A program made the translations under genes and the position numbers. Of a stretch of 18,375 nt of DNA, positions 1 to 18,375 are shown piece by piece. Each line of letters starts with the position of its first letter. The stretch's first letter is position 1. Source of the DNA: an uncultured bacterium (GTDB lineage: Bacteria; CSSED10-310; CAZUFC01); contig CAZUFC010000150.1 of the NCBI GenBank assembly GCA_964619725.1, forward strand, positions 1 through 18,375, in the 5' to 3' direction. A model generated the notes under the pieces. That model searched no databases. It saw only the letters and a list, made by a program, of their open reading frames with translations, and was not told the DNA's origin.

Positions 1-140
1 GGGATCGGGGTTGGTGTCGGTATTTGGATCGGGTTCGGGGTCAGTATCGGGGTCGGTCTTGGGTCGGGGTCGGGATCGGGGTCGGGATCGGGGTTGGTGT
101 CGGTATCTGGATCGGGATCGGGGTCGGGATCGCAGTCGGA
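1..140 (+). repeat. Degenerate hexamer tandem array (ATCGGG/GTCGGG)n, cut by the window start
   Basis: Iterated GGGATC/GGGGTC/GGTATC units; 1-33 and 84-116 form a 33-nt direct repeat with one mismatch. Confidence 0.9.
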
Positions 141-256
141 CATTTGATACGACTATCGGTCCAACTTTATGCCTTCTTCAAGTTTGTCCCAAACTGAGGT
201 TTTTTTTTGCGGGAGGTTGATACGTCGATTTTTTCGATTGATTCACTCAGTTATAC

Positions 257-292
257 GTTTTGAAAAAAGCTTAACACCATTTTGATCATTCC
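257..292 (-). repeat. Degenerate terminus of the GGGACTGATCAAA repeat family (copy F)
   Basis: gttttgaaaaaagcttaacaccattttgatcattcc matches 12738-12773 at 30 of 36 positions without gaps. Confidence 0.75.
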
Positions 293-450
293 AGAAATTT
301 TTTTAATCTATTGTTGTGTTTTCGTTAACCAAAACAAAATTTCTACCAGTCAATGTCAGAAGATATGAAGGAGTTGAATAAAACTCGCCCCAACCCGCCA
401 TAGAAGAACCCAACTAAACCCCCTAACCAGCCCAAAACAAACCACTCTGA

Positions 451-2493: not shown

Positions 2494-2620
2494 GGGACTG
2501 ATCAAACCGGGCTATGGTTCTTTCAAGTTTTTCGACAGTTTGTTTCAGTAATCGGATCGCAATTGCAAAAAAATGATGGAATATTCTGTAGAATTTCAAC
2601 TTCAAAAGATGAATTTTGAA
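2494..2620 (+). repeat. GGGACTGATCAAA repeat family, copy A (single arm)
   Basis: gggactgatcaaaccggg...tttcaagtttttcgacagtttgtttcagtaatcgg...aaaatgatggaatattctgtagaatttcaacttcaaaagatg is colinear with 4071-4213. Confidence 0.9.
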
Positions 2621-3994: not shown

Positions 3995-4032
3995 ATGCCG
4001 GCACGTATTGTTGCCTCCATTTGATCAGTCCC
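3995..4032 (-). repeat. GGGACTGATCAAA family, variant arm (GGGACTGATCAAATGGAGG)
   Basis: Minus strand gggactgatcaaatggaggcaacaa resembles the plus-strand sequence from 18322, ggcgctgatcaaatgggggtacaa; it lies back-to-back with copy B. Confidence 0.7.
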
Positions 4033-4070
4033 AAATTTTCAGATACACAGTAAAGCTGCTTGTCATTCTT

Positions 4071-4213
4071 GGGACTGTTCAAACCGGGGTTATACTTATT
4101 TCATAACTTTTAACAGTTTGTTTCAGTAATCGGGATCGGGATCGGGGTTGAAACAAAATGATGGGAAATTCGGAAGAATTCCAACCTTAAAAGACGCATT
4201 TTTGATCAATGCC
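4071..4213 (+). repeat. GGGACTGATCAAA repeat family, copy B (single arm)
   Basis: Aligns without gaps to the reverse complement of 10006-10148 at about 80% identity by hand count; contains ATCGGG iterations. Confidence 0.92.
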
Positions 4214-4420
4214 CAAAAAGGTTAAAAATGTATTCGTTGTCGCGATCCTGGTCGTGATCGTTGTCGAATAAAGGTTTAACGTCCATTCAGGCGAAATTGA
4301 ATTTAAATGACATTTCATGCTGTATTCCGACAACGATTCATAAGCCATTCATTAGTAGGGAGTCGGCGGATTAAGTCTTTGTGACGGGCTCTGACCCCGT
4401 TTCTGATCGTTTGTCTTGAA

Positions 4421-5879: not shown

Positions 5880-8063
5880 ATGAACGCCAGAATGAATTCT
5901 CTTTTAAGCCATATAATAAAGTTCGGGACTGTCGTCATCATCGGTGCAGCAATGCTGATTTTATGGTCACGGTTCGATGTTGACGAAGGAGGATTTTCTC
6001 AAGGGGTTGTCCCGCAGAAGGAGGCGATTGTTTTCAAAAGCACGGGCAAAATCGACTGGGGAGAAAAAGGAGCCGATTACTTTTCCGTCCAGGGGATCGA
6101 TTCCGATGATGCGACAAGCGGACAATTCATTTCAGCGAAAGCCCGTGTCGCCCGCGTACAATTCTGGCGCGTAAAATCTGAAACGTTTACATTAAGAATC
6201 AGATGCAGGCAATCATGCGAAGCATCCCACATAGTTCCTTTATTGCTGTCGGTTAACGGCAGGCATGTCGGCCGCCTGCGACTGAAACGTGACTGGGAAA
6301 CTTTTTCAGTGAGCATACCTGCGAAACTGACGTTAAGCGGCCGCAATATTCTGACGCTGGAAACGCCAAAGGGCACGACAAAGCCTGATATGTATTATGA
6401 CCTGGACTGGATGGATTTCGGAGCTGATCATAATGAAGCGAATCAAAGGCCGGCATGGCGGGAATTAACTCCAGGAACAGCCGTAATGACCTATCATTTT
6501 TTATTTCCCGGAGACAGTATTCTGCTGCAATGCGGCAAGAACAGTCCGGGTTATTCGGCCGTAAGCATAACGGGCGATAATGTGCGGGAAAAAGAGTATT
6601 TTCTTGGCCGCCGGTTATGGTTTGAAGAAACTTCAATCGAATACGAGCTGCAAGGCGGGGCCGGCGCTTCATTGTATCCTTCGGCCGCCAGGTGCCTGGT
6701 ATATGCGGATGACGAGCATGCCGGGGACGCTTTTCGGTTCAAAATCGGTCAGAAAAACTCACGAAAAGCCCCGGGAGAATCTCTTGCTTTATATTCCGAA
6801 TTCGCGAATGAAACGCCGCAAGCAGATATAATCGTTCTCGTGCTGGACTCGCTGCGGGCTGATGCCGCGGGTTGCGGAGGTTGTTCTCTGAAGATAACGC
6901 CCAACATCGACAAAGCTGCGAGGAAGGGTTTGACTGTTTTTCAGAGTATAGCGGCAGCGCCGTTTACGACTTCTTCGATTGCGTCGTTAATGACCGGGGT
7001 TCAACCTGTCCGGCACAAAGTATACGACATAGAAAGCATGGTCCCGGAGGCTCTTCCGACCCTGGCGGAAGAATTGAAAAAGGCCGGATATGAGACATGC
7101 GCCATAAACGCCATGGCGACCCTGGCCGGCGAATACGGTTTCTCCCGGGGTTTCCAGATTTACCATGAAATTCACGATCAATTTCCGCATCCTGTTGACG
7201 GAATACATGCTGTTGAGGCATTTGAGAAAATTTACGGGAAATCGGGATTTGAATTTCCGGGGTTCTTTTATATTCACCTGAGAGAACCGCATTTTCCTTA
7301 CCTTCCGCCCTCTCCTTATATCGATTTATTCGGAAAGGCAGGAACCTATCGTTACCTGATGGATCGGAGGGTGTTCCGGAGGATAAAAAAATTTGAAAGA
7401 ATCTTATCGCCGGATGAACTGAAGGGAATGCGAATGCTCTATAATGCCGGGGTGAGATATGCGGATTACTGCCTGGGTGAAATTCTAAAGACCGTTATTG
7501 AGAAGAAACGCTGGACCGACACATTATTGATAATTCTAGGCGATCATGGAGAAGGCTTCTGCGAGCACGGCAGGTACTCGCACGGCAGCGTCGTTTATAA
7601 TGAAATGACGCGTGTTCCGACGATCATTTCAGGCGGCTGCATCAATGATCAGCAAAAAGACAGGATCATCAGCTCGATGGGAACGACGGATTTGCATCGT
7701 CTTATCCTTGACAGAGCGGGAATAAATTATGTGGAAACCGGCGTTAAGCCCGGCGAATCCGAAAATCGTTTACATCATTCACACGGAATGAGCAGGTACG
7801 GTCAACATTCGTTATGCCGGAATAATTGGAAATTTATCGGCAGTTACAAACAATTTTACGATTTTGAGCTGTATAATCTGGAGCAAGACCCGAATGAACA
7901 CGAGAATCTGTCAGAAGGATATCCTATCCTCGTCGAATACTTTCATAACATAATGGACATAAAGCTGTATGAGGATTTCTCAAGGCCGGTCAAACGGAAA
8001 AGAATCCTGTCGAAAGGTCATCATAAGAAATTAAAGGCGCTGGGCTACCTTTCTGAGGATTAA
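5880..8063 (+). CDS. Membrane-anchored sulfatase-like hydrolase/transferase (alkaline phosphatase superfamily)
   Basis: N-terminal TM, beta-rich middle region, then IIVLVLDSLRAD, TPNID, APFTTSSIASLMTG, EPHFPY, GDHGEGF.EHG..H, ELYNLEQDPNE and terminal LKALGY. Confidence 0.9.
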   Translation: MNARMNSLLSHIIKFGTVVIIGAAMLILWSRFDVDEGGFSQGVVPQKEAIVFKSTGKIDWGEKGADYFSVQGIDSDDATSGQFISAKARVARVQFWRVKSETFTLRIRCRQSCEASHIVPLLLSVNGRHVGRLRLKRDWETFSVSIPAKLTLSGRNILTLETPKGTTKPDMYYDLDWMDFGADHNEANQRPAWRELTPGTAVMTYHFLFPGDSILLQCGKNSPGYSAVSITGDNVREKEYFLGRRLWFEETSIEYELQGGAGASLYPSAARCLVYADDEHAGDAFRFKIGQKNSRKAPGESLALYSEFANETPQADIIVLVLDSLRADAAGCGGCSLKITPNIDKAARKGLTVFQSIAAAPFTTSSIASLMTGVQPVRHKVYDIESMVPEALPTLAEELKKAGYETCAINAMATLAGEYGFSRGFQIYHEIHDQFPHPVDGIHAVEAFEKIYGKSGFEFPGFFYIHLREPHFPYLPPSPYIDLFGKAGTYRYLMDRRVFRRIKKFERILSPDELKGMRMLYNAGVRYADYCLGEILKTVIEKKRWTDTLLIILGDHGEGFCEHGRYSHGSVVYNEMTRVPTIISGGCINDQQKDRIISSMGTTDLHRLILDRAGINYVETGVKPGESENRLHHSHGMSRYGQHSLCRNNWKFIGSYKQFYDFELYNLEQDPNEHENLSEGYPILVEYFHNIMDIKLYEDFSRPVKRKRILSKGHHKKLKALGYLSED

Positions 8064-8129
8064 GCGTTTTCACGGCGCCGGCGCAGCAGAAGCGCTGCAG
8101 TCAGTCACCGGTGCAGGGAAGTTTGCAAA

Positions 8130-9944
8130 ATGAATCATTCTCATTCTCGGTTATCGCTTTTGTCACGAAGATTAATCCTCATACTGGTCCCTCTCGCAGC
8201 GCTGATTCTATCGCTGCCGGCGTTAAAGCTTGGTTTTTACATGGACGACCATACGCACAGGCTGCTTTTGCAGGATACGGACGTCATTCCTCACATGAAA
8301 TCGCCGCTGATGGACATGTTCGCATTCGTCGACGGGAAACCTGAGCATACGCGTATAATGCTGGAAGACGGGATACTGCCGTGGTGGTCCCTGCCGCACC
8401 TGCAACTGTCATTCTGGCGTCCCCTGTCCGTTATGACTCACATGCTGGATTATGCTTTATGGCCTGACAGTCCAATTCTCATGCATTTTCACAATATCGT
8501 ATGGTATGTGGTACTGATTATCCTGGTCACGCTGCTTTACCGGAGAATAATGGGACCGGTATGGACAGCGGGTCTGGCAGCATTTTTTTATGCCGTGGAC
8601 GAAACGCATTCCTGGCCCATCGGCTGGATAGCCAACCGTAATGCGCTGATCTCTGCAGGCCTGGGAGTTGTCGTATTACTCTTTTATGACCGTTACAGAA
8701 GAAAAAACTGGAAGCCGGGGGCCTGGCTGGTACCGGTTTTTCTCTTCCTGGGACTGCTTTCAGGCGAATCGACCATCGCAATTACGGCATATCTTTTCGG
8801 TTATGCGGTCTGCCTGGATTCGGGAAAACTTTTTTCCCGGGCGCTCAGGCTTCTGCCCTCCCTCATTGCCGTCGCCGCATGGTGGGCAATTTATCATGCA
8901 CTAGGCTTCGGCACATTCGGATCAGACGTTTACATCAACCCCCTCAATGAACCCTGGAGTTATCTGTCGGCGCTGCCCGAACGAGCCTCCGTCCTGCTGC
9001 TGAATCAATGGACGTTCACCGTTGCCGGCCTGGACATCGTTTTACCCGAAGAGAGTTACGGCTATATTCGCGTTGCCGCATTCCTTTTTCCGCTCCTCCT
9101 CCTTTTCCTTCTGCTTCCTCTGTGTAAACGAAGTAAAGTCTCCCGATTCTGGTGCATCGGTATGCTTCTGTCACTGCTGCCGGCCTGTTCGACATTTGCT
9201 CACGACCGGCTGCTGATTTTCAGCGGAATCGGCGCCCTGGCCCTGGCGGCTCAACTGATCGACGCCCTCATGAATAAACCCGGTATATTTCCCTTGTTGA
9301 AGGCGAAGAAAATATTGAGAAGACTTCTTGTCTGGGCAATAATAACCGTGCACGCGGTTATCGCTCCCGTCATGATGTGGGGCGGATTCATGAGCGTGCA
9401 CGGCATGAAAGCTCTTGTCGAAGGCGCATCAGAAACCGCCCCGCTCGATCCGTCCGTCACCGGCAGCCATTTTATACTGGTCAATCCCCCCATACCCTTT
9501 ATAGCCATGAACATCCCCGTCGTCAGAACCCTCAGAAAACAACCCCTTCCTCTCAGCATCAAAATCCTCGCATCAGGACATACCTCCGTTGAAATAACTC
9601 GATGGGATGCATACTCGGTTTCATTGCGTCCTGAATCCGGCTTTATTGCAGCTCCGCTGGACAGGATGCTCAGAAGCGAACAGCATCCCTTCCGCCCGGG
9701 ATGGAAAATCGAATTGCCTGCCGTGAACATCACGGTCCTCTCCACCTCAGAAGACGGCAGACCCGCGGAAGCGCTCTTCCGGTTCAATATGCCGCTCGAA
9801 GATCAATCATTCATATGGCTTCAATGGAAAAACAACGGGTATGAATCCTTTACGCCGCCTGAAATCGGACTGACAGTCGCATTGCCGCCGAATCCCGCTC
9901 ATTTGCTGTTCCTGAATGCAGTCGCCTATTCCCCGGGCGGTTGA
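8130..9944 (+). CDS. Polytopic membrane protein, probable GT-C-fold glycosyltransferase
   Basis: About 10-11 hydrophobic segments, FYMDD after TM1, WRPL loop motif, later WIANR, GES and DRLL segments, and a soluble C-terminal domain. The function is inferred. Confidence 0.7.
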   Translation: MNHSHSRLSLLSRRLILILVPLAALILSLPALKLGFYMDDHTHRLLLQDTDVIPHMKSPLMDMFAFVDGKPEHTRIMLEDGILPWWSLPHLQLSFWRPLSVMTHMLDYALWPDSPILMHFHNIVWYVVLIILVTLLYRRIMGPVWTAGLAAFFYAVDETHSWPIGWIANRNALISAGLGVVVLLFYDRYRRKNWKPGAWLVPVFLFLGLLSGESTIAITAYLFGYAVCLDSGKLFSRALRLLPSLIAVAAWWAIYHALGFGTFGSDVYINPLNEPWSYLSALPERASVLLLNQWTFTVAGLDIVLPEESYGYIRVAAFLFPLLLLFLLLPLCKRSKVSRFWCIGMLLSLLPACSTFAHDRLLIFSGIGALALAAQLIDALMNKPGIFPLLKAKKILRRLLVWAIITVHAVIAPVMMWGGFMSVHGMKALVEGASETAPLDPSVTGSHFILVNPPIPFIAMNIPVVRTLRKQPLPLSIKILASGHTSVEITRWDAYSVSLRPESGFIAAPLDRMLRSEQHPFRPGWKIELPAVNITVLSTSEDGRPAEALFRFNMPLEDQSFIWLQWKNNGYESFTPPEIGLTVALPPNPAHLLFLNAVAYSPGG

Positions 9945-10005
9945 TTTACTTGCGTTCAAGAACCGATAAAGTCAATCTGCATTGGGTTACAGACAGGAAT
10001 AAAAA

Positions 10006-10149
10006 GGCGTTGATCAAAAATGCATCTTTTGAGGTTTAAGTTCTTCAGAATATCCGATCATTCTGTTTCGATGGCGATACCGACGCCGATTGCTGAAACA
10101 AACTGTCAAAAGTTTCGAAAGAGGCGTAACTCCGGTTTGATCCCTCCCC
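10006..10149 (-). repeat. GGGACTGATCAAA repeat family, copy C (single arm)
   Basis: Reverse complement aligns with copies A and B; ends in gtaactccggtttgatccctcccc. Confidence 0.9.
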
Positions 10150-10244
10150 GAGTTTTTTAACGGGGGATTTATATAAGCCCATTTTCTTGTTGATTATTCT
10201 TTTAACCGGTTTTTTCTCAGACCGGAATTTTTTTTGAAAAAATT

Positions 10245-10272
10245 TGCAACAAAACCGGCTGCGCTTACGTCT
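10245..10272 (+). promoter_or_regulatory. ECF sigma-type promoter
   Basis: TGCAAC-N17-CGTCT fits the generic ECF pattern (AAC at -35, CGT at -10) and lies upstream of an anti-sigma operon. Confidence 0.7.
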
Positions 10273-10283
10273 TATGCACGACT

Positions 10284-10409
10284 ATGAAACGGGAACGCTT
10301 CAAAAAAGAGCAGAGGATGAAAAAAAATCGCAATGACAATCATGCCTTTTATTGCACGGGGAATCAGAAGTCCGCCCCTGCAATCGTCAGGAAGGGTGAT
10401 TTTTCATGA
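10284..10409 (+). CDS. Putative 41-aa small ORF coupled to the anti-sigma gene
   Basis: MKRERFKKEQRMKKNRNDNHAFYCTGNQKSAPAIVRKGDFS*; its TGA (10407-10409) overlaps ATG 10406 as ATGA. Confidence 0.35.
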   Translation: MKRERFKKEQRMKKNRNDNHAFYCTGNQKSAPAIVRKGDFS

Positions 10410-10969
10410 ATTGCTCAGGATATAAAGAAAAAATTCAGTCCTACCTGGAGGGAGATTTACCGGGAAAACAGGCTGAGAAGTTTAAAGCGCACATGCGGCA
10501 ATGCGGGGCTTGTCGAAATGAGTATGAAGATTACCGGATGATGATGAAATGCATGGGGAGCCTGGAGCTTCAAAAATGTCCGGCGCAGGTTGTTGACGAT
10601 GTTTACCGGGAAATTGAATCAAGGAATAAGGACCATAAGGTTAAAAACGGATTTTTGTCGCTGCTGGATTTTCCTTCTTTAACCATGCGGCAGGCTGCCG
10701 CCGTCGGAATGGCCGCCGTGCTGTTATTAACCTTAATCATTGCTTTTCCGGGTATCAAGGATCACTATTTCACCAATCCGCAATACTCGGATGAAGAAAT
10801 TCAGCAGGGCGTCAACCAGGTTAAAATGCTTCTGGGTTATATCAAGCATTTAAACCGGAAAACACAGGAAAAAATTGAACGGGAGGTGATGGATGAAGGG
10901 ATAGCGCATTCTCTTAATAATTCTGTGGAATCATTGGAAAATTACATTCTTGATAATAATGGAGGTTAA
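10406..10969 (+). CDS. Zinc-binding (zf-HC2) transmembrane anti-sigma factor
   Basis: MNC...YLEGDL...HMRQCGAC (HxxxCxxC), single TM AAAVGMAAVLLLTLIIAF, short helical C-terminus. Confidence 0.87.
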   Translation: MNCSGYKEKIQSYLEGDLPGKQAEKFKAHMRQCGACRNEYEDYRMMMKCMGSLELQKCPAQVVDDVYREIESRNKDHKVKNGFLSLLDFPSLTMRQAAAVGMAAVLLLTLIIAFPGIKDHYFTNPQYSDEEIQQGVNQVKMLLGYIKHLNRKTQEKIEREVMDEGIAHSLNNSVESLENYILDNNGG

Positions 10970-10971
10970 AA

Positions 10972-11574
10972 ATGAAAAGTTTGACGGTTTTATTGATACT
11001 GGCGATTGCCGGTGCAGCTTCCGCCGCTACTGCCGGCGACTATTCGGACCTTCCCGGATACGTGGATTTAAGCGACATGCAAGACTTCAAAGTTGAAGGG
11101 GAAGAAGTTGAAGTCTACATAACGAAACCTATGCTCAACATGATGTCTGCCGTGGTTGCCGGCGAAGATCAGGAATTGGGACAGTTCATGGAAGCTTTGA
11201 ACCTGATTCGCGTGGAACAATTTGAAATTGGCAGGGAGACTGCGGGAGTCATACGCAAAGCGATAGAGCAGAAAGGGGAAAAGCTGGCGGAACAGGGATG
11301 GGAAAAGATGGTTCGGGTGAAAGAGGAAGATGAAATAGTGGAAGTATACATCAAGCCAGTGGATGAAAAAATTGAAGGTTTGTGCGTCATGGTCCAGGAT
11401 TCTTCTGAAGTAGTATTTGTAAACATAGTCGGAACGATTGATATGAGTTTACTGGGCAAGTTAAGCGGTCAATTCAATATTCCCGCTGTGAATAATTTTG
11501 TTCCTGCCGGCAATGCGCCGGATGCGCCGCAGGAAGACGAACCGGAGGCTTCAGAACCTGCTTCCGAGGAATAG
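10972..11574 (+). CDS. DUF4252-like exported protein
   Basis: GGAGG SD, signal peptide, PGYVDL, GWEKMVRVKEEDEIVEVY, EVVFVNIVGTID, acidic tail. Confidence 0.85.
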   Translation: MKSLTVLLILAIAGAASAATAGDYSDLPGYVDLSDMQDFKVEGEEVEVYITKPMLNMMSAVVAGEDQELGQFMEALNLIRVEQFEIGRETAGVIRKAIEQKGEKLAEQGWEKMVRVKEEDEIVEVYIKPVDEKIEGLCVMVQDSSEVVFVNIVGTIDMSLLGKLSGQFNIPAVNNFVPAGNAPDAPQEDEPEASEPASEE

Positions 11575-11587
11575 AAAAGGTGTCATC

Positions 11588-12127
11588 ATGAAACCTTCAA
11601 GAGTAATTATTTTCATGTTTTTCCTGACCTGGGCAGCGCTTTCCTCCGGTTGCATCTTTTGCACTAACTTTGAAGGCGTGCAGGGCGTAATAGACGGAAT
11701 GACAAAAGACTGGGGCGTCAAGCCGGTCGTTAAGATTTGCATGGGGCCGCTGAGTTTAAACGCGATGGGAGCGGCAGCATTAAAAGCTGCATCTGAAGAA
11801 GAGGCTGCAGATTATTTGAAACACATATCGGGTATCCAATTGGGCGTCTATGAGTTAGGATCGGAGCTAATTTCGGAAAAATCCGGGATGATGTCTGTAA
11901 TTGAACGGGAATTGCTGGCTGATGACTGGGAACTGTTCATACGAGTTAAAGATAAGGATGAATTCGTCGTGATATATTTTCATGCTGAAACTGAAACAGA
12001 CGCGGCGCTTTATCTCGCGGTTCTCGACGGAACCGATATGGTGTTGGGAGAAATAAAGGGCAATCTGACGGCGTTGATGCAGGCAGCGCTGCAGAACCAG
12101 GAACTTGAAATCGGGGCGTTTGCTTAG
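11588..12127 (+). CDS. DUF4252-like lipoprotein
   Basis: ATG 11588 follows AAAGGT; lipobox-like AALSSGC; WELFIRVKDKDEFVVIY and MVLGEIKGNL parallel the upstream gene. Confidence 0.8.
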   Translation: MKPSRVIIFMFFLTWAALSSGCIFCTNFEGVQGVIDGMTKDWGVKPVVKICMGPLSLNAMGAAALKAASEEEAADYLKHISGIQLGVYELGSELISEKSGMMSVIERELLADDWELFIRVKDKDEFVVIYFHAETETDAALYLAVLDGTDMVLGEIKGNLTALMQAALQNQELEIGAFA

Positions 12128-12248
12128 GCAGCACGATTGCCGTTTCGATCGGAACACGACTGGCGCTTGTTTATGAGTAAATCCGCTGCCTTATGAATAC
12201 AAAGGTCGAATCAGGGAGAAGACTTTTGCTTAATTTAAGATACGCTTC

Positions 12249-12352
12249 AATGATCGGATGAAAACTTCCTACCTCCAATAAAGTTTACTTCGATCATTTA
12301 ACCGGCAATAGCATCGCCGCCCCGGAATTTCGGTGCGGCGATGCTTTTTTTT
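12249..12352 (+). ncRNA. Candidate small RNA (hairpin with C-rich loop plus terminator)
   Basis: AATGATCG/CGATCATT and AAACTT/AAGTTT stems enclose the loop CCTACCTCCAATA, followed by an intrinsic terminator. Confidence 0.4.
12310..12352 (+). terminator. Rho-independent terminator
   Basis: AGCATCGCCGC-c-CCG-gaattt-CGG-t-GCGGCGATGCT followed by a T run. Confidence 0.85.
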
Positions 12353-12375
12353 AATTTGTGTATGGGCCTTGATAC

Positions 12376-12426
12376 AAAGGGACAAAAGGACAAAGGGACC
12401 TAAGAGACCTAAGGGACAGAAGGGAC
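12376..12426 (+). repeat. Degenerate 8-9-mer tandem repeat (AGGGACNNA), about six units
   Basis: aagggaca aaaggacaa agggaccta agagaccta agggacaga agggac. Confidence 0.8.
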
Positions 12427-12504
12427 GCCTGGAATATAAGAACATTTGTATTAATGAAAACCGGCATCTGGAAATTAACCTTCTTAAAGAAGAAACTGAA
12501 TTTC

Positions 12505-12775
12505 TGGAGTGATCATAGCAGGGGGGCAATTTTCATGCAACATTTGACTGCTTGAAATCCCCTGTTTTTTTTCATCGAGGGCTGGTTGGTTCGATATCGG
12601 GGTGGGTATAAGAATACTTAGTAAGCCCAGCCCGCCTATTCTATGGCAGCACGACAGACGTCGAACTTTTCTTGACCAAAGCCCCTTTCGTTCCTTTCGA
12701 TCCCGATCCCGATTACTGAGGAAACAAAGTGTCAAAAGTTTTGAAAAAAGTGTAACCCCGGTTTGATCAGTCCCC
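12505..12775. mobile_element. Two-ended copy D of the GGGACTGATCAAA family (MITE-like; left end decayed)
   Basis: Left part ggagtgatca...ttgaaatcccctgttttttttcatcgag matches 17996-18073; right end gtaaccccggtttgatcagtccc is intact; internal atcgggg and cccgatcccgat hexamers face each other. Confidence 0.75.
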
Positions 12776-12799
12776 ATTCTCCTTCATCCGGTATCCAGT

Positions 12800-14081: not shown

Positions 14082-14282
14082 ATTTTGCGCCTTTTCCTTT
14101 TAATCCGCTGGTTTGCGGAGGGGTCAGAGCCCTGCGCAAAACATGGATGTATAAACGATTTTTGCGTTTTACTGGTGCGCAGGAGCAAAAGGAATTATAA
14201 TTTGACATGGAGGAGCAATGGGAAGTGAGTATAAACCGTTAATTTTTGCATTTTATATTTTTATATTTGAGGAGAAGGGGCA

Positions 14283-16292: not shown

Positions 16293-16408
16293 GCAGAGAG
16301 ACGGCAGTTTAATTTGATGGGCAACTATTAACGAGAAGGCTATGAGAAATCCGGTTCAGTGCAGGGCTCTGCCCTCTGCTTGATGTGAGTTAATCGTTTA
16401 ATAATTTT

Positions 16409-17899: not shown

Positions 17900-17995
17900 A
17901 ATCTTCGGTACCGATCGCAAATAGTTCATTTGAGGTTCTACTTATTCCGAATTTATGCGCTGATCAGATGGACGCGTTTCGAGGTCAAATTTTTT

Positions 17996-18315
17996 GGGAC
18001 TGATCAAACCGGGGTTGCACTTTATGATACAACGCTTGAATGATTGAAATCCCCTGTTTTTTTTTTCATCGAGCGCCTTTCCTTTAGGAGTCGGGGTCAA
18101 TATCGGGATCGGGATATAAACAAAATATTTCGGCATTGATCAAAAAAGCCTCTTTTGAGGTTACAATGCGACAGAATCGTCTGTCATTTTGTTTCGATTT
18201 CGATCACGATTGCGAATCCGATGCCTATACCGATTACGATACCGATACCGATTGCGATGTCGACATAAATTGTCAAAAGTTTTGAAAGAATTGTAACCCC
18301 GGCTTGATCAGTCCC
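17996..18315. mobile_element. 320-bp non-autonomous MITE/foldback-like element, copy E of the GGGACTGATCAAA family
   Basis: Terminal inverted repeats GGGACTGATCAAACCGGGGTTGCA / GGGACTGATCAAGCCGGGGTTACA (22/24); internal inverted hexamer arrays; no credible ORF; no target-site duplication seen. Confidence 0.8.
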
Positions 18316-18375
18316 TAAAATGGCGCTGATCAAATGGGGGTACAAATTGACGAGACACGAGAACAAATTATAGTT

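Follow-up and report, generated by a model that had tools for sequence, protein, structure and literature searches.

The window analysed here, the whole 18,375-nt contig C150 (CAZUFC010000150.1) of a metagenome bin of an uncultured bacterium, carries members of one repeat family between its genes. [quoted passage not shown] The genes of the window are ordinary and encode extracytoplasmic function (ECF) sigma and anti-sigma factor pairs, DUF4252 proteins, a tyrosyl-tRNA synthetase, a sulfatase, an Omp85 protein, and phosphoesterases; tRNA genes were not found among them. The bin comprises 9,173,508 bp in 344 contigs (designated by C and a number) with 47% G+C, and the closest genomes in the comparison collection belong only to the same phylum. 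Four DNA sequencing runs of a single study, labelled microbial mat metagenome, contain the window, and there is no RNA run among those listed.

Repeat copies in the window

An earlier note, made from the sequence of the window alone, had reported six related loci, all of which were recovered by repeat search, alignments, and seven profile matches. The latter amount to 3.8 matches per 10 kb, compared with a median of 0.8 for contigs of at least 20 kb. Complete members have two different ends, here termed A and B, with a tract of hexamers between them. The following members are present (relatives are counted per 10-nt bin):

1-140, minus strand: expanded internal hexamer tract of a decayed copy, period 6 with TCG at each sixth base, running off the contig start (Tandem Repeats Finder periods 6, 12, and 18 at 1-139; repeat families D1, D2, and D4)
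240-293, minus strand: decayed A-type terminus that belongs with the tract at 1-140 (70% identity to the reference copy of family D3)
2494-2620, plus strand: type-1 copy with A-type end and hexamer tract, B terminus lost (profile positions 1-144 of 155, E 4e-24)
4007-4035, minus strand: solitary family terminus, reading GGGACTGATCAAATGG... on the minus strand (family D9, by alignment with other members)
4071-4213, plus strand: complete 143-bp type-1 MITE with A end, three hexamers, and B end (profile 1-155, E 8e-38), without an intact target duplication
10006-10148, minus strand: complete 143-bp type-1 MITE (profile 1-155, E 4e-36), bridged by the contig assembled from run X1 that covers 7949-12422
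12505-12694, plus strand: rarer-subfamily fragment in which a variant A-type end precedes a T-run and CATCGAG (1-11 relatives per bin); aligns with 17996-18131
12695-12774, minus strand: A-half of a type-1 copy, terminus and hexamers (profile 1-77, E 3.5e-19; 125-472 relatives per bin)
17996-18131, plus strand: truncated unit of the rarer subfamily, of the same kind as 12505-12694, with which it aligns (13-43 relatives per bin); resembles a smaller subfamily cluster (cluster 6)
18132-18315, minus strand: complete 184-bp type-1 MITE of the young subfamily (300-415 relatives per bin); two profile matches join across its long tract
18322-18375, plus strand: start of a further member, GGCGCTGATCAAATGGGGGTACAAAT..., running off the contig end (family D8, 78%)

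The two 143-bp copies at 4071-4213 and 10006-10148 had been taken for one arm each (the second as 10006-10149) but are complete elements with two different ends. They match each other in reverse orientation over 143 nt with 80% identity, as the earlier note had estimated. The copy at 2494-2620 is colinear with that at 4071-4213 (77-78%), and 12721-12774 and 240-293 have the terminal 54 nt in common (100% and 70%, respectively, in family D3).

The piece at 17996-18315, which had been described as a 320-bp element with 24-bp terminal inverted repeats, does have inverted termini (arms 17991-18022 and 18289-18320; 32 nt, 88% complementary by repeat search) but is not a unit. BLAST against the genome found the whole piece at its own locus only, with no other place spanning the junction, and the number of relatives per bin jumps at position 18131, from 13-43 on the left to 300-415 on the right. 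The unique junction and the jump in coverage identify the piece as two members placed head to head, a one-off and chance juxtaposition of the truncated unit at 17996-18131 and the complete, reversed copy at 18132-18315. The left arm of the 24-bp inverted repeat comes from the truncated unit, and the two outward-facing A-type ends mimic a long inverted repeat. The sequences flanking the piece, AATTTTTT and TAAAATGG, show no duplication. The stretch 12505-12775 is likewise a one-off composite, as judged by BLAST against the genome.

All copies in the window are positioned between long open reading frames (ORFs). Two shorter minus-strand ORFs, 12269-12529 (86 aa) and 12484-12777 (97 aa), run through repeat copies, match no family, and are probably spurious. 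Tandem 8-9-nt repeats of the GGGACAAAG / GGGACCTAA type adjoin members of the rarer MITE subfamilies at 12374-12426 and also on contigs C43, C32, and C12. The motif GGGACCTAAGGGAC has 99 occurrences in the genome.

Anatomy, target duplications, and age of the family

The mobile unit is an element of at least 143 bp with the ends GGGACTGATCAAA... and ...TTTGATCAATGCC, not the 320-bp piece. In the consensus, the commonest unit (approximately 143-166 bp) consists of the A end GGGACTGATCAAACCGGGGTTACA, about 35 nt of sequence, a run of hexamers of the form NNNTCG, AAACAAAATGA accompanied by a short palindromic or hairpin region, and the B end TGTAACCTCAAAAGACGCATTTTTGATCAATGCC. Both ends share GGsAyTGATCAAA and, farther in, the motif GGTTACA, whose position is offset by 10 bp between them (from base 18 in the A end, from base 28 in the B end). 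Full-length copies range from 117 to 311 bp (median 154) and have terminal inverted repeats, although the inverted part comprises only about 13 nt of approximately 150. The copies contain no ORF. Clustering of the termini revealed at least 12 smaller subfamilies, which share these ends but differ in their interiors.

The family is abundant throughout the genome. A profile of four window copies located 706 places, 266 of them at full length; a second profile, made from the 264 genome copies with usable flanks and underlying all figures based on 851 matches, found 321 full-length members among these matches, 245 with the A side only, and 188 with the B side only. The matches cover 102,134 bp (1.11% of the assembly) and are spread over 242 of the 344 contigs, including 127 of the 137 contigs of at least 20 kb, so that copies outside the window are anything but few. 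Exact copies of the 19-nt terminus number 59 in the assembly, and 603 are found when up to three mismatches are allowed, which places the repeats far beyond chance. Together with the absence of internal ORFs, the terminal inverted repeats, and the duplications described below, these numbers bear out the view of the earlier note that the repeats are non-autonomous elements with a high copy number genome-wide.

Evidence for transposition comes from the flanks. The 8 bp before the A end and after the B end are identical in 51 of 264 copies and differ by at most one mismatch in 87, whereas only 0.68 exact matches are expected from shuffled flank pairs. A flank match was found in only one of 264 copies at 7 bp and in only one at 9 bp, which fixes the length of the target duplication at exactly 8 bp. 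The duplicated sites are rich in A+T (77%) and have an AAA/TTT profile. At the decay implied by 88.5% identity, identical flanks would be expected arithmetically in about 14% of the copies; the observed 19% fits a start with a duplication for nearly every copy. No intact duplication is visible on the copies in the window, as had been stated in the earlier note, but the statement does not extend to the genome. The exact 8-bp duplications indicate that the MITEs were moved by a DDE transposase, not by a REP (repetitive extragenic palindromic) system. Such an enzyme would act in trans by binding the A and B ends, and insertion at AT-rich sites (approximately nAAATTTn) with a cut staggered by 8 bp would give rise to the duplication.

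The intergenic position that had been noted for every copy holds throughout the window and for most of the genome. There is no overlap with ORFs of at least 150 aa in 804 of the 851 matches, compared with 117 of 851 random placements. The median gap between a MITE and the nearest long ORFs is about 200 nt, and both convergent and divergent gene pairs are over-represented.

Every copy contains an (NNNTCG)n tract, which comprises 1-33 units in the 264 copies and up to 62 units genome-wide. The units are mostly GTATCG, GGGTCG, CAATCG, TAATCG, GGATCG, and AAATCG, and the element length modulo 6 equals 5 in 135 of 264 copies. The genome has 496 tracts of at least six units, compared with two in a shuffled sample of 1.5 Mb; 297 of these 496 coincide with family profile matches, and 12 touch contig ends, including that at 1-140 of the window. 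Compared with the identical 166-bp copies at C6:33697 and C312:2719, the copy at 18132-18315 has an insertion of 18 columns (three hexamers) and a few substitutions, mostly in the hexamer tract. That this young copy differs mainly by three extra hexamers shows that the tract changes faster than the rest of the element. After insertion, the length of the tract probably drifts by slippage, at a rate much higher than that of other mutations.

The age of the family is mixed. The median identity of the copies to the consensus is 88.5%, and pairwise identities are around 80%, which agrees with the earlier description of the family as old. This description does not apply to a young subfamily, which has identical copies at different sites. 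The copies at C6:33697 and C312:2719 agree in 166 of 166 positions but have unrelated flanks and perfect but different duplications (AATTATTC and TTAAATCC); those at C213:6387 and C60:47728 are identical over 161 bp and occupy different sites; and several further copies with perfect duplications are 95-98% alike. Identical copies at unrelated sites with perfect duplications imply recent movement. Most copies would thus stem from an old burst, whereas a small subfamily appears to have moved very recently.

Candidate transposases

The ends of the MITEs, GGGACTG and GGCATTG, fit the form GGnnnTG, and the combination of such ends with 8-bp duplications points to an enzyme of the IS1/IS6 type. GGnnnTG ends are common to the IS1 and IS6/IS26 families of insertion sequences (ISs), and 8-bp duplications are given for IS6/IS26 (PMC6807381); an ISAba3-like element of the IS1 family has also been reported with 8-bp duplications (PMC6382973).

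An intact gene for a DDE transposase of the IS1 family, the only one in the assembly, lies inside one MITE copy on contig C100. The earlier note had seen no transposase in the window, and this gene is a candidate located elsewhere in the genome. The protein (275 aa) has its best family match with NF033558 (IS1; 52 bits, E 7e-14). It has at least 8000 homologues, many of them named 'IS1 family transposase' by their sources; the closest among the matches listed is 65% identical. In an alignment of 24 members of its clade, all 24 match the IS1 model best and 22 match PF03400, and the C100 protein retains all invariant columns. It passes the Pfam model DDE_Tnp_IS240 narrowly (28.2 versus 27 bits), whereas IS6 models score 28 bits against a cut-off of 125. 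The only tblastn match of the transposase in the assembly is the protein itself, and the interior around its gene is single-copy.

On the strand of the gene, the arrangement begins with the A half of a MITE (profile 1-80, C100 positions 2483-2399) with hexamers. After a gap of 73 nt comes the transposase gene, then two ORFs of 57 and 137 aa, a frameshifted gene for a PIN-domain protein (PF01850), and finally the B half of the MITE (profile 84-143, positions 139-81). In both halves, the derived bases are those of the youngest subfamily, which has approximately 36-40 members among the 851 matches. Among the passengers at C100:207-1334, the 137-aa ORF belongs to no known family and the PIN gene is split by the frameshift into 42 aa and 128 aa; their layout resembles that of a toxin-antitoxin pair.

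Ten relatives of the clade are elements of 1.8-3.1 kb with clear ends and exact 8-bp duplications; nine of them have ends of the GGTAGTG type or similar. These elements (loci L021, L036, L042, L050, L067, L072, L084, L085, L090, and L095) come from ten genomes of other lineages, and their size leaves room for passengers beside a transposase gene of 0.85 kb. In the five elements inspected, ORFs are present beside the transposase gene and differ between elements.

Several observations weigh against the reading of the repeats as MITEs served by such a DDE transposase. The score of the C100 protein (52 bits) is below the NCBIfam cut-off of 100 bits. The IS on C100 has an end of its own, GGTAGTGTCCTAATTTG, which lies directly inside the B half (C100:139-155) and occurs once in the genome. 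In two other genomes, relatives have ends that match this sequence in 17 of 17 positions; one of these relatives, the tenth of the clade elements above, measures 2,937 bp and has perfect 18-nt ends with the duplication CACGACGC. Homology with the MITEs stops exactly at this IS end (117 matches end at position 139 and 12 at 138, 129 altogether), which argues that the IS inserted into a MITE and not that the MITEs were derived from it by deletion. By eye, the ends of the MITEs share 10 of 19 anchored positions with the end of the clade and differ at the other nine. Upstream of the C100 gene, no matching left IS end was found, and the outer flanks of the 2.4-kb unit C100:81-2483 (GAAAAATG versus TGAAAATT) agree in only 5 of 8 positions, without an 8-bp duplication. 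Terminus-pair searches of the assembly yielded no element that combines a transposase gene, MITE-type ends, and a duplication. The age signal is also weak, with a slight correlation between the intactness of the duplication and the identity to the consensus (Spearman -0.13, p 0.04). Finally, the bin sets a limit of its own, with a completeness of 90.9% and a contamination of 6.5%.

The arrangement on C100 most likely arose when a young MITE received an insertion of an IS from this clade, which later lost its left end. The chance that the mobilizing enzyme belongs to a related element outside the 91%-complete assembly may be put at even, whereas the possibility that the C100 enzyme itself moves the MITEs falls somewhat short of that. 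The latter is kept in play by the 10 of 19 shared end positions, the equal length of the duplications, and the improbability of a chance landing in a subfamily of about 40 copies. These estimates, and that for the 2.4-kb unit as master element considered next, overlap, being answers to one question.

The unit C100:81-2483 might itself be the autonomous master of the family, with the A and B termini as its functional ends and the MITEs as derivatives by internal deletion. Such an origin would account for the position of the A half (1-80) and the B half (84-143) on one strand, correctly ordered on either side of an intact transposase gene, for the derived bases of the youngest subfamily at both ends of the unit (approximately 36-40 of 851 members, which makes a chance landing unlikely), and for the single-copy interior, as expected of a low-copy master. 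It is nevertheless unlikely, because the canonical end of the clade (17/17) is located just inside the B half, where all MITE homology stops; because old and young MITEs have the same internal junction, which repeated random deletions would hardly produce; and because the unit has neither a clean 8-bp duplication (only 5/8) nor a second copy. The earlier note had advised searching for copies that enclose an ORF; C100:81-2483 does surround an IS1-family gene, but the IS to which this gene belongs has its own, different end. Still less likely than a master element is a one-ended IS1-family IS on C100 that was re-armed by the termini of its host MITE, whereby a non-autonomous element would have regained a transposase gene. 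If so, the 2.4-kb unit with its broken, toxin-antitoxin-like PIN passenger would drive the recent wave of copies, and the hexamer tract beside the left end would be a length-variable site to which the transposase binds or by which its expression is tuned.

On contig C145 (6903-7039; locus L111:604-740), a family member of 96 bp is directly followed by two IS-end-like sequences (6999-7039), back to back and 7 nt apart. They have 2 and 3 mismatches to the 17-mer of the resident IS and may be left over from IS copies that were in tandem or were excised, or may represent a hairpin.

Other candidates for an autonomous partner were examined and rejected. Among the terminus pairs located 80-6000 bp apart, 100 have matching 8-bp flanks; 91 of these span at most 400 bp, and the four that exceed 2 kb have one mismatch each. 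One of these four, on C220, was inspected and consists of an ordinary gene between two MITEs. The 50 terminus pairs around a large ORF show no duplication. Self-megablast revealed long repeats with adhesin-like genes, a reverse transcriptase of the group II intron type, and an Rpn-like gene, with no DDE transposase among them. An ISL3 candidate is a single broken remnant without MITE ends, IS256 is represented by one weak match, and ISAs1 by a fragment of 48 residues. A DDE_Tnp_1 (IS4-like) gene on C132 (387 aa) has adjoining terminus-like matches with two mismatches that lack the rest of the MITE. Members of the IS1595 family, which are kin of IS1, also make 8-bp duplications. PF12762 has no match in the genome, and NF033547 has only one weak match (28.9 bits), which is again the C100 gene.

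In relation to known systems, the repeats constitute a MITE family that is new but whose kind is well known; by its ends, it belongs to the IS1/IS6-type class. They resemble the IS1 family in their GGnnnTG termini, in 8-bp duplications like those of the ten relatives of the resident transposase, and in the intact IS1-family gene inside one copy. Unlike them, the MITEs match the end of the resident IS only partially (at about 10 of 19 positions) and have a hexamer tract, which is absent from the first 260 bases of the five clade relatives that were read. The likeness to IS6/IS26 comprises the GGnnnTG ends and 8-bp duplications described in PMC6807381 and the narrow match of the resident protein to DDE_Tnp_IS240; by contrast, IS6 scores are far below the cut-off, and an IS1595 transposase is absent from the genome.

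Alternative readings, distribution, and significance

The copies are short, very abundant, and intergenic, as are REP sequences, their paired forms (REPINs), and the elements moved by REP-associated tyrosine transposases (RAYTs). The genome also encodes a Y1 transposase of the IS200-like Pfam family. Nevertheless, mobilization by a RAYT (HUH, Y1) enzyme as a REP/REPIN-like system is very improbable for this family, and so is the domesticated REP system that the earlier note had considered. Single-strand transposition by HUH enzymes is not known to make target duplications, whereas exact 8-bp duplications are present here. The MITEs also differ from REP systems in having two different ends, and a strong hairpin is absent (mean fold z-score -0.5, empty consensus fold). 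Moreover, the Y1 gene, on contig C22, is surrounded by a different repeat, GGGGTCAGAGCCC; the window contains two of its 116 exact genomic copies. This second repeat family, whose core is found on both sides of the RAYT-type gene, occurs in the window at 4386-4398 (minus strand), 14120-14132 (plus strand), and imperfectly near 16354-16377; together with the Y1 gene, it is probably the true REP/RAYT system of this genome. The term foldback-like, also used in the earlier note, does not fit either: about 13 nt of approximately 150 are inverted, there are no long, strongly folding arms (folding of 80 individual copies gave mean z-scores of -0.46 and -0.53), and the two-armed 320-bp piece is unique.

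The copies might instead be maintained by selection and not by transposition, as small structured RNAs or as sites of regulation (terminators, promoters, or G-quadruplex tracts, for example). One copy has a terminator-like hairpin with a T-rich tail (18170-18185), and the G-rich hexamers are reminiscent of the GGGNATC quadruplex repeats of Xanthomonas and Nostoc (PMC4692102). This explanation is equally remote. The comparison with Rfam suggested in the earlier note gave no match at gathering score in the window; RNAalifold found no consensus structure in 264 copies; only 6 of these 264 contain a canonical quadruplex motif; and the target duplications, together with the identical copies at unrelated sites, demonstrate transposition. 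The GGGNATC repeats share with the MITEs short G-rich tandem units with GATC-like cores, a variable number of units, and an intergenic position; however, their period is 7, compared with 6 in the MITEs, most units of which are not G-rich and whose tract lies inside a transposon.

The reading as a MITE family with an internal tandem repeat is not without precedent. In Porphyromonas gingivalis, the BrickBuilt element (PMC4596501) is a known bacterial MITE that contains a minisatellite; it likewise has a variable internal tandem repeat between small inverted-repeat ends and is always intergenic. It differs in its 23-nt unit and 19 copies in one strain, compared with the 6-nt unit, the hundreds of copies, and the clear 8-bp duplications of the present family.

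The family was not found in any of 40 other genomes (13 from the same phylum, 27 from the same domain). The exact 24-mer end is absent from public genome and metagenome contig collections, and a looser pattern of the B end retrieved four loci, none of which resembles the family. The earlier note had also proposed to compare filled and empty sites; no empty site (a contig that skips a copy) is present among the joints listed for the assembled contigs of the four runs, although contigs could easily miss such sites. The contigs of the runs pile up on the copies, and the listed pieces of run X1 end near most copies in the window.

Other duplicated sequences in the bin include a 21-kb stretch present on two contigs (C36:23040-44003 and C117:3666-24629) with 99.995% identity and a 2.4-kb stretch in tandem duplicate (C22:68874-73633) with 99.9% identity. 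Both are likely to represent assembly duplication or strain overlap within the bin. Two further genes may be mobile. A gene of the group II intron reverse transcriptase type, recognized by eye, occurs in two copies with 89% identity (C66:2-1309 and C247), and a gene at C57:3174-4163, also named by eye, resembles the Rpn/Transposase_31 type.

The repeats are a hazard for annotation and assembly, as illustrated by the spurious ORFs at 12269-12529 and 12484-12777, the assembled pieces of run X1 that end near copies, and the 12 hexamer tracts at contig ends. Their hundreds of length-variable intergenic microsatellites could serve for strain typing in time series of microbial mats. Because the family occupies about 1% of a large genome in a deep-branching uncultured lineage and was not found elsewhere in the collections searched, it could also be a marker of this lineage. 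The understanding of the mechanism of MITEs is unchanged by these findings. Noteworthy features of the family are its abundance, the hexanucleotide microsatellite inside the copies, and the transposase gene that a young copy holds between its halves; this gene offers a natural case for studying how MITEs find or regain an enzyme.

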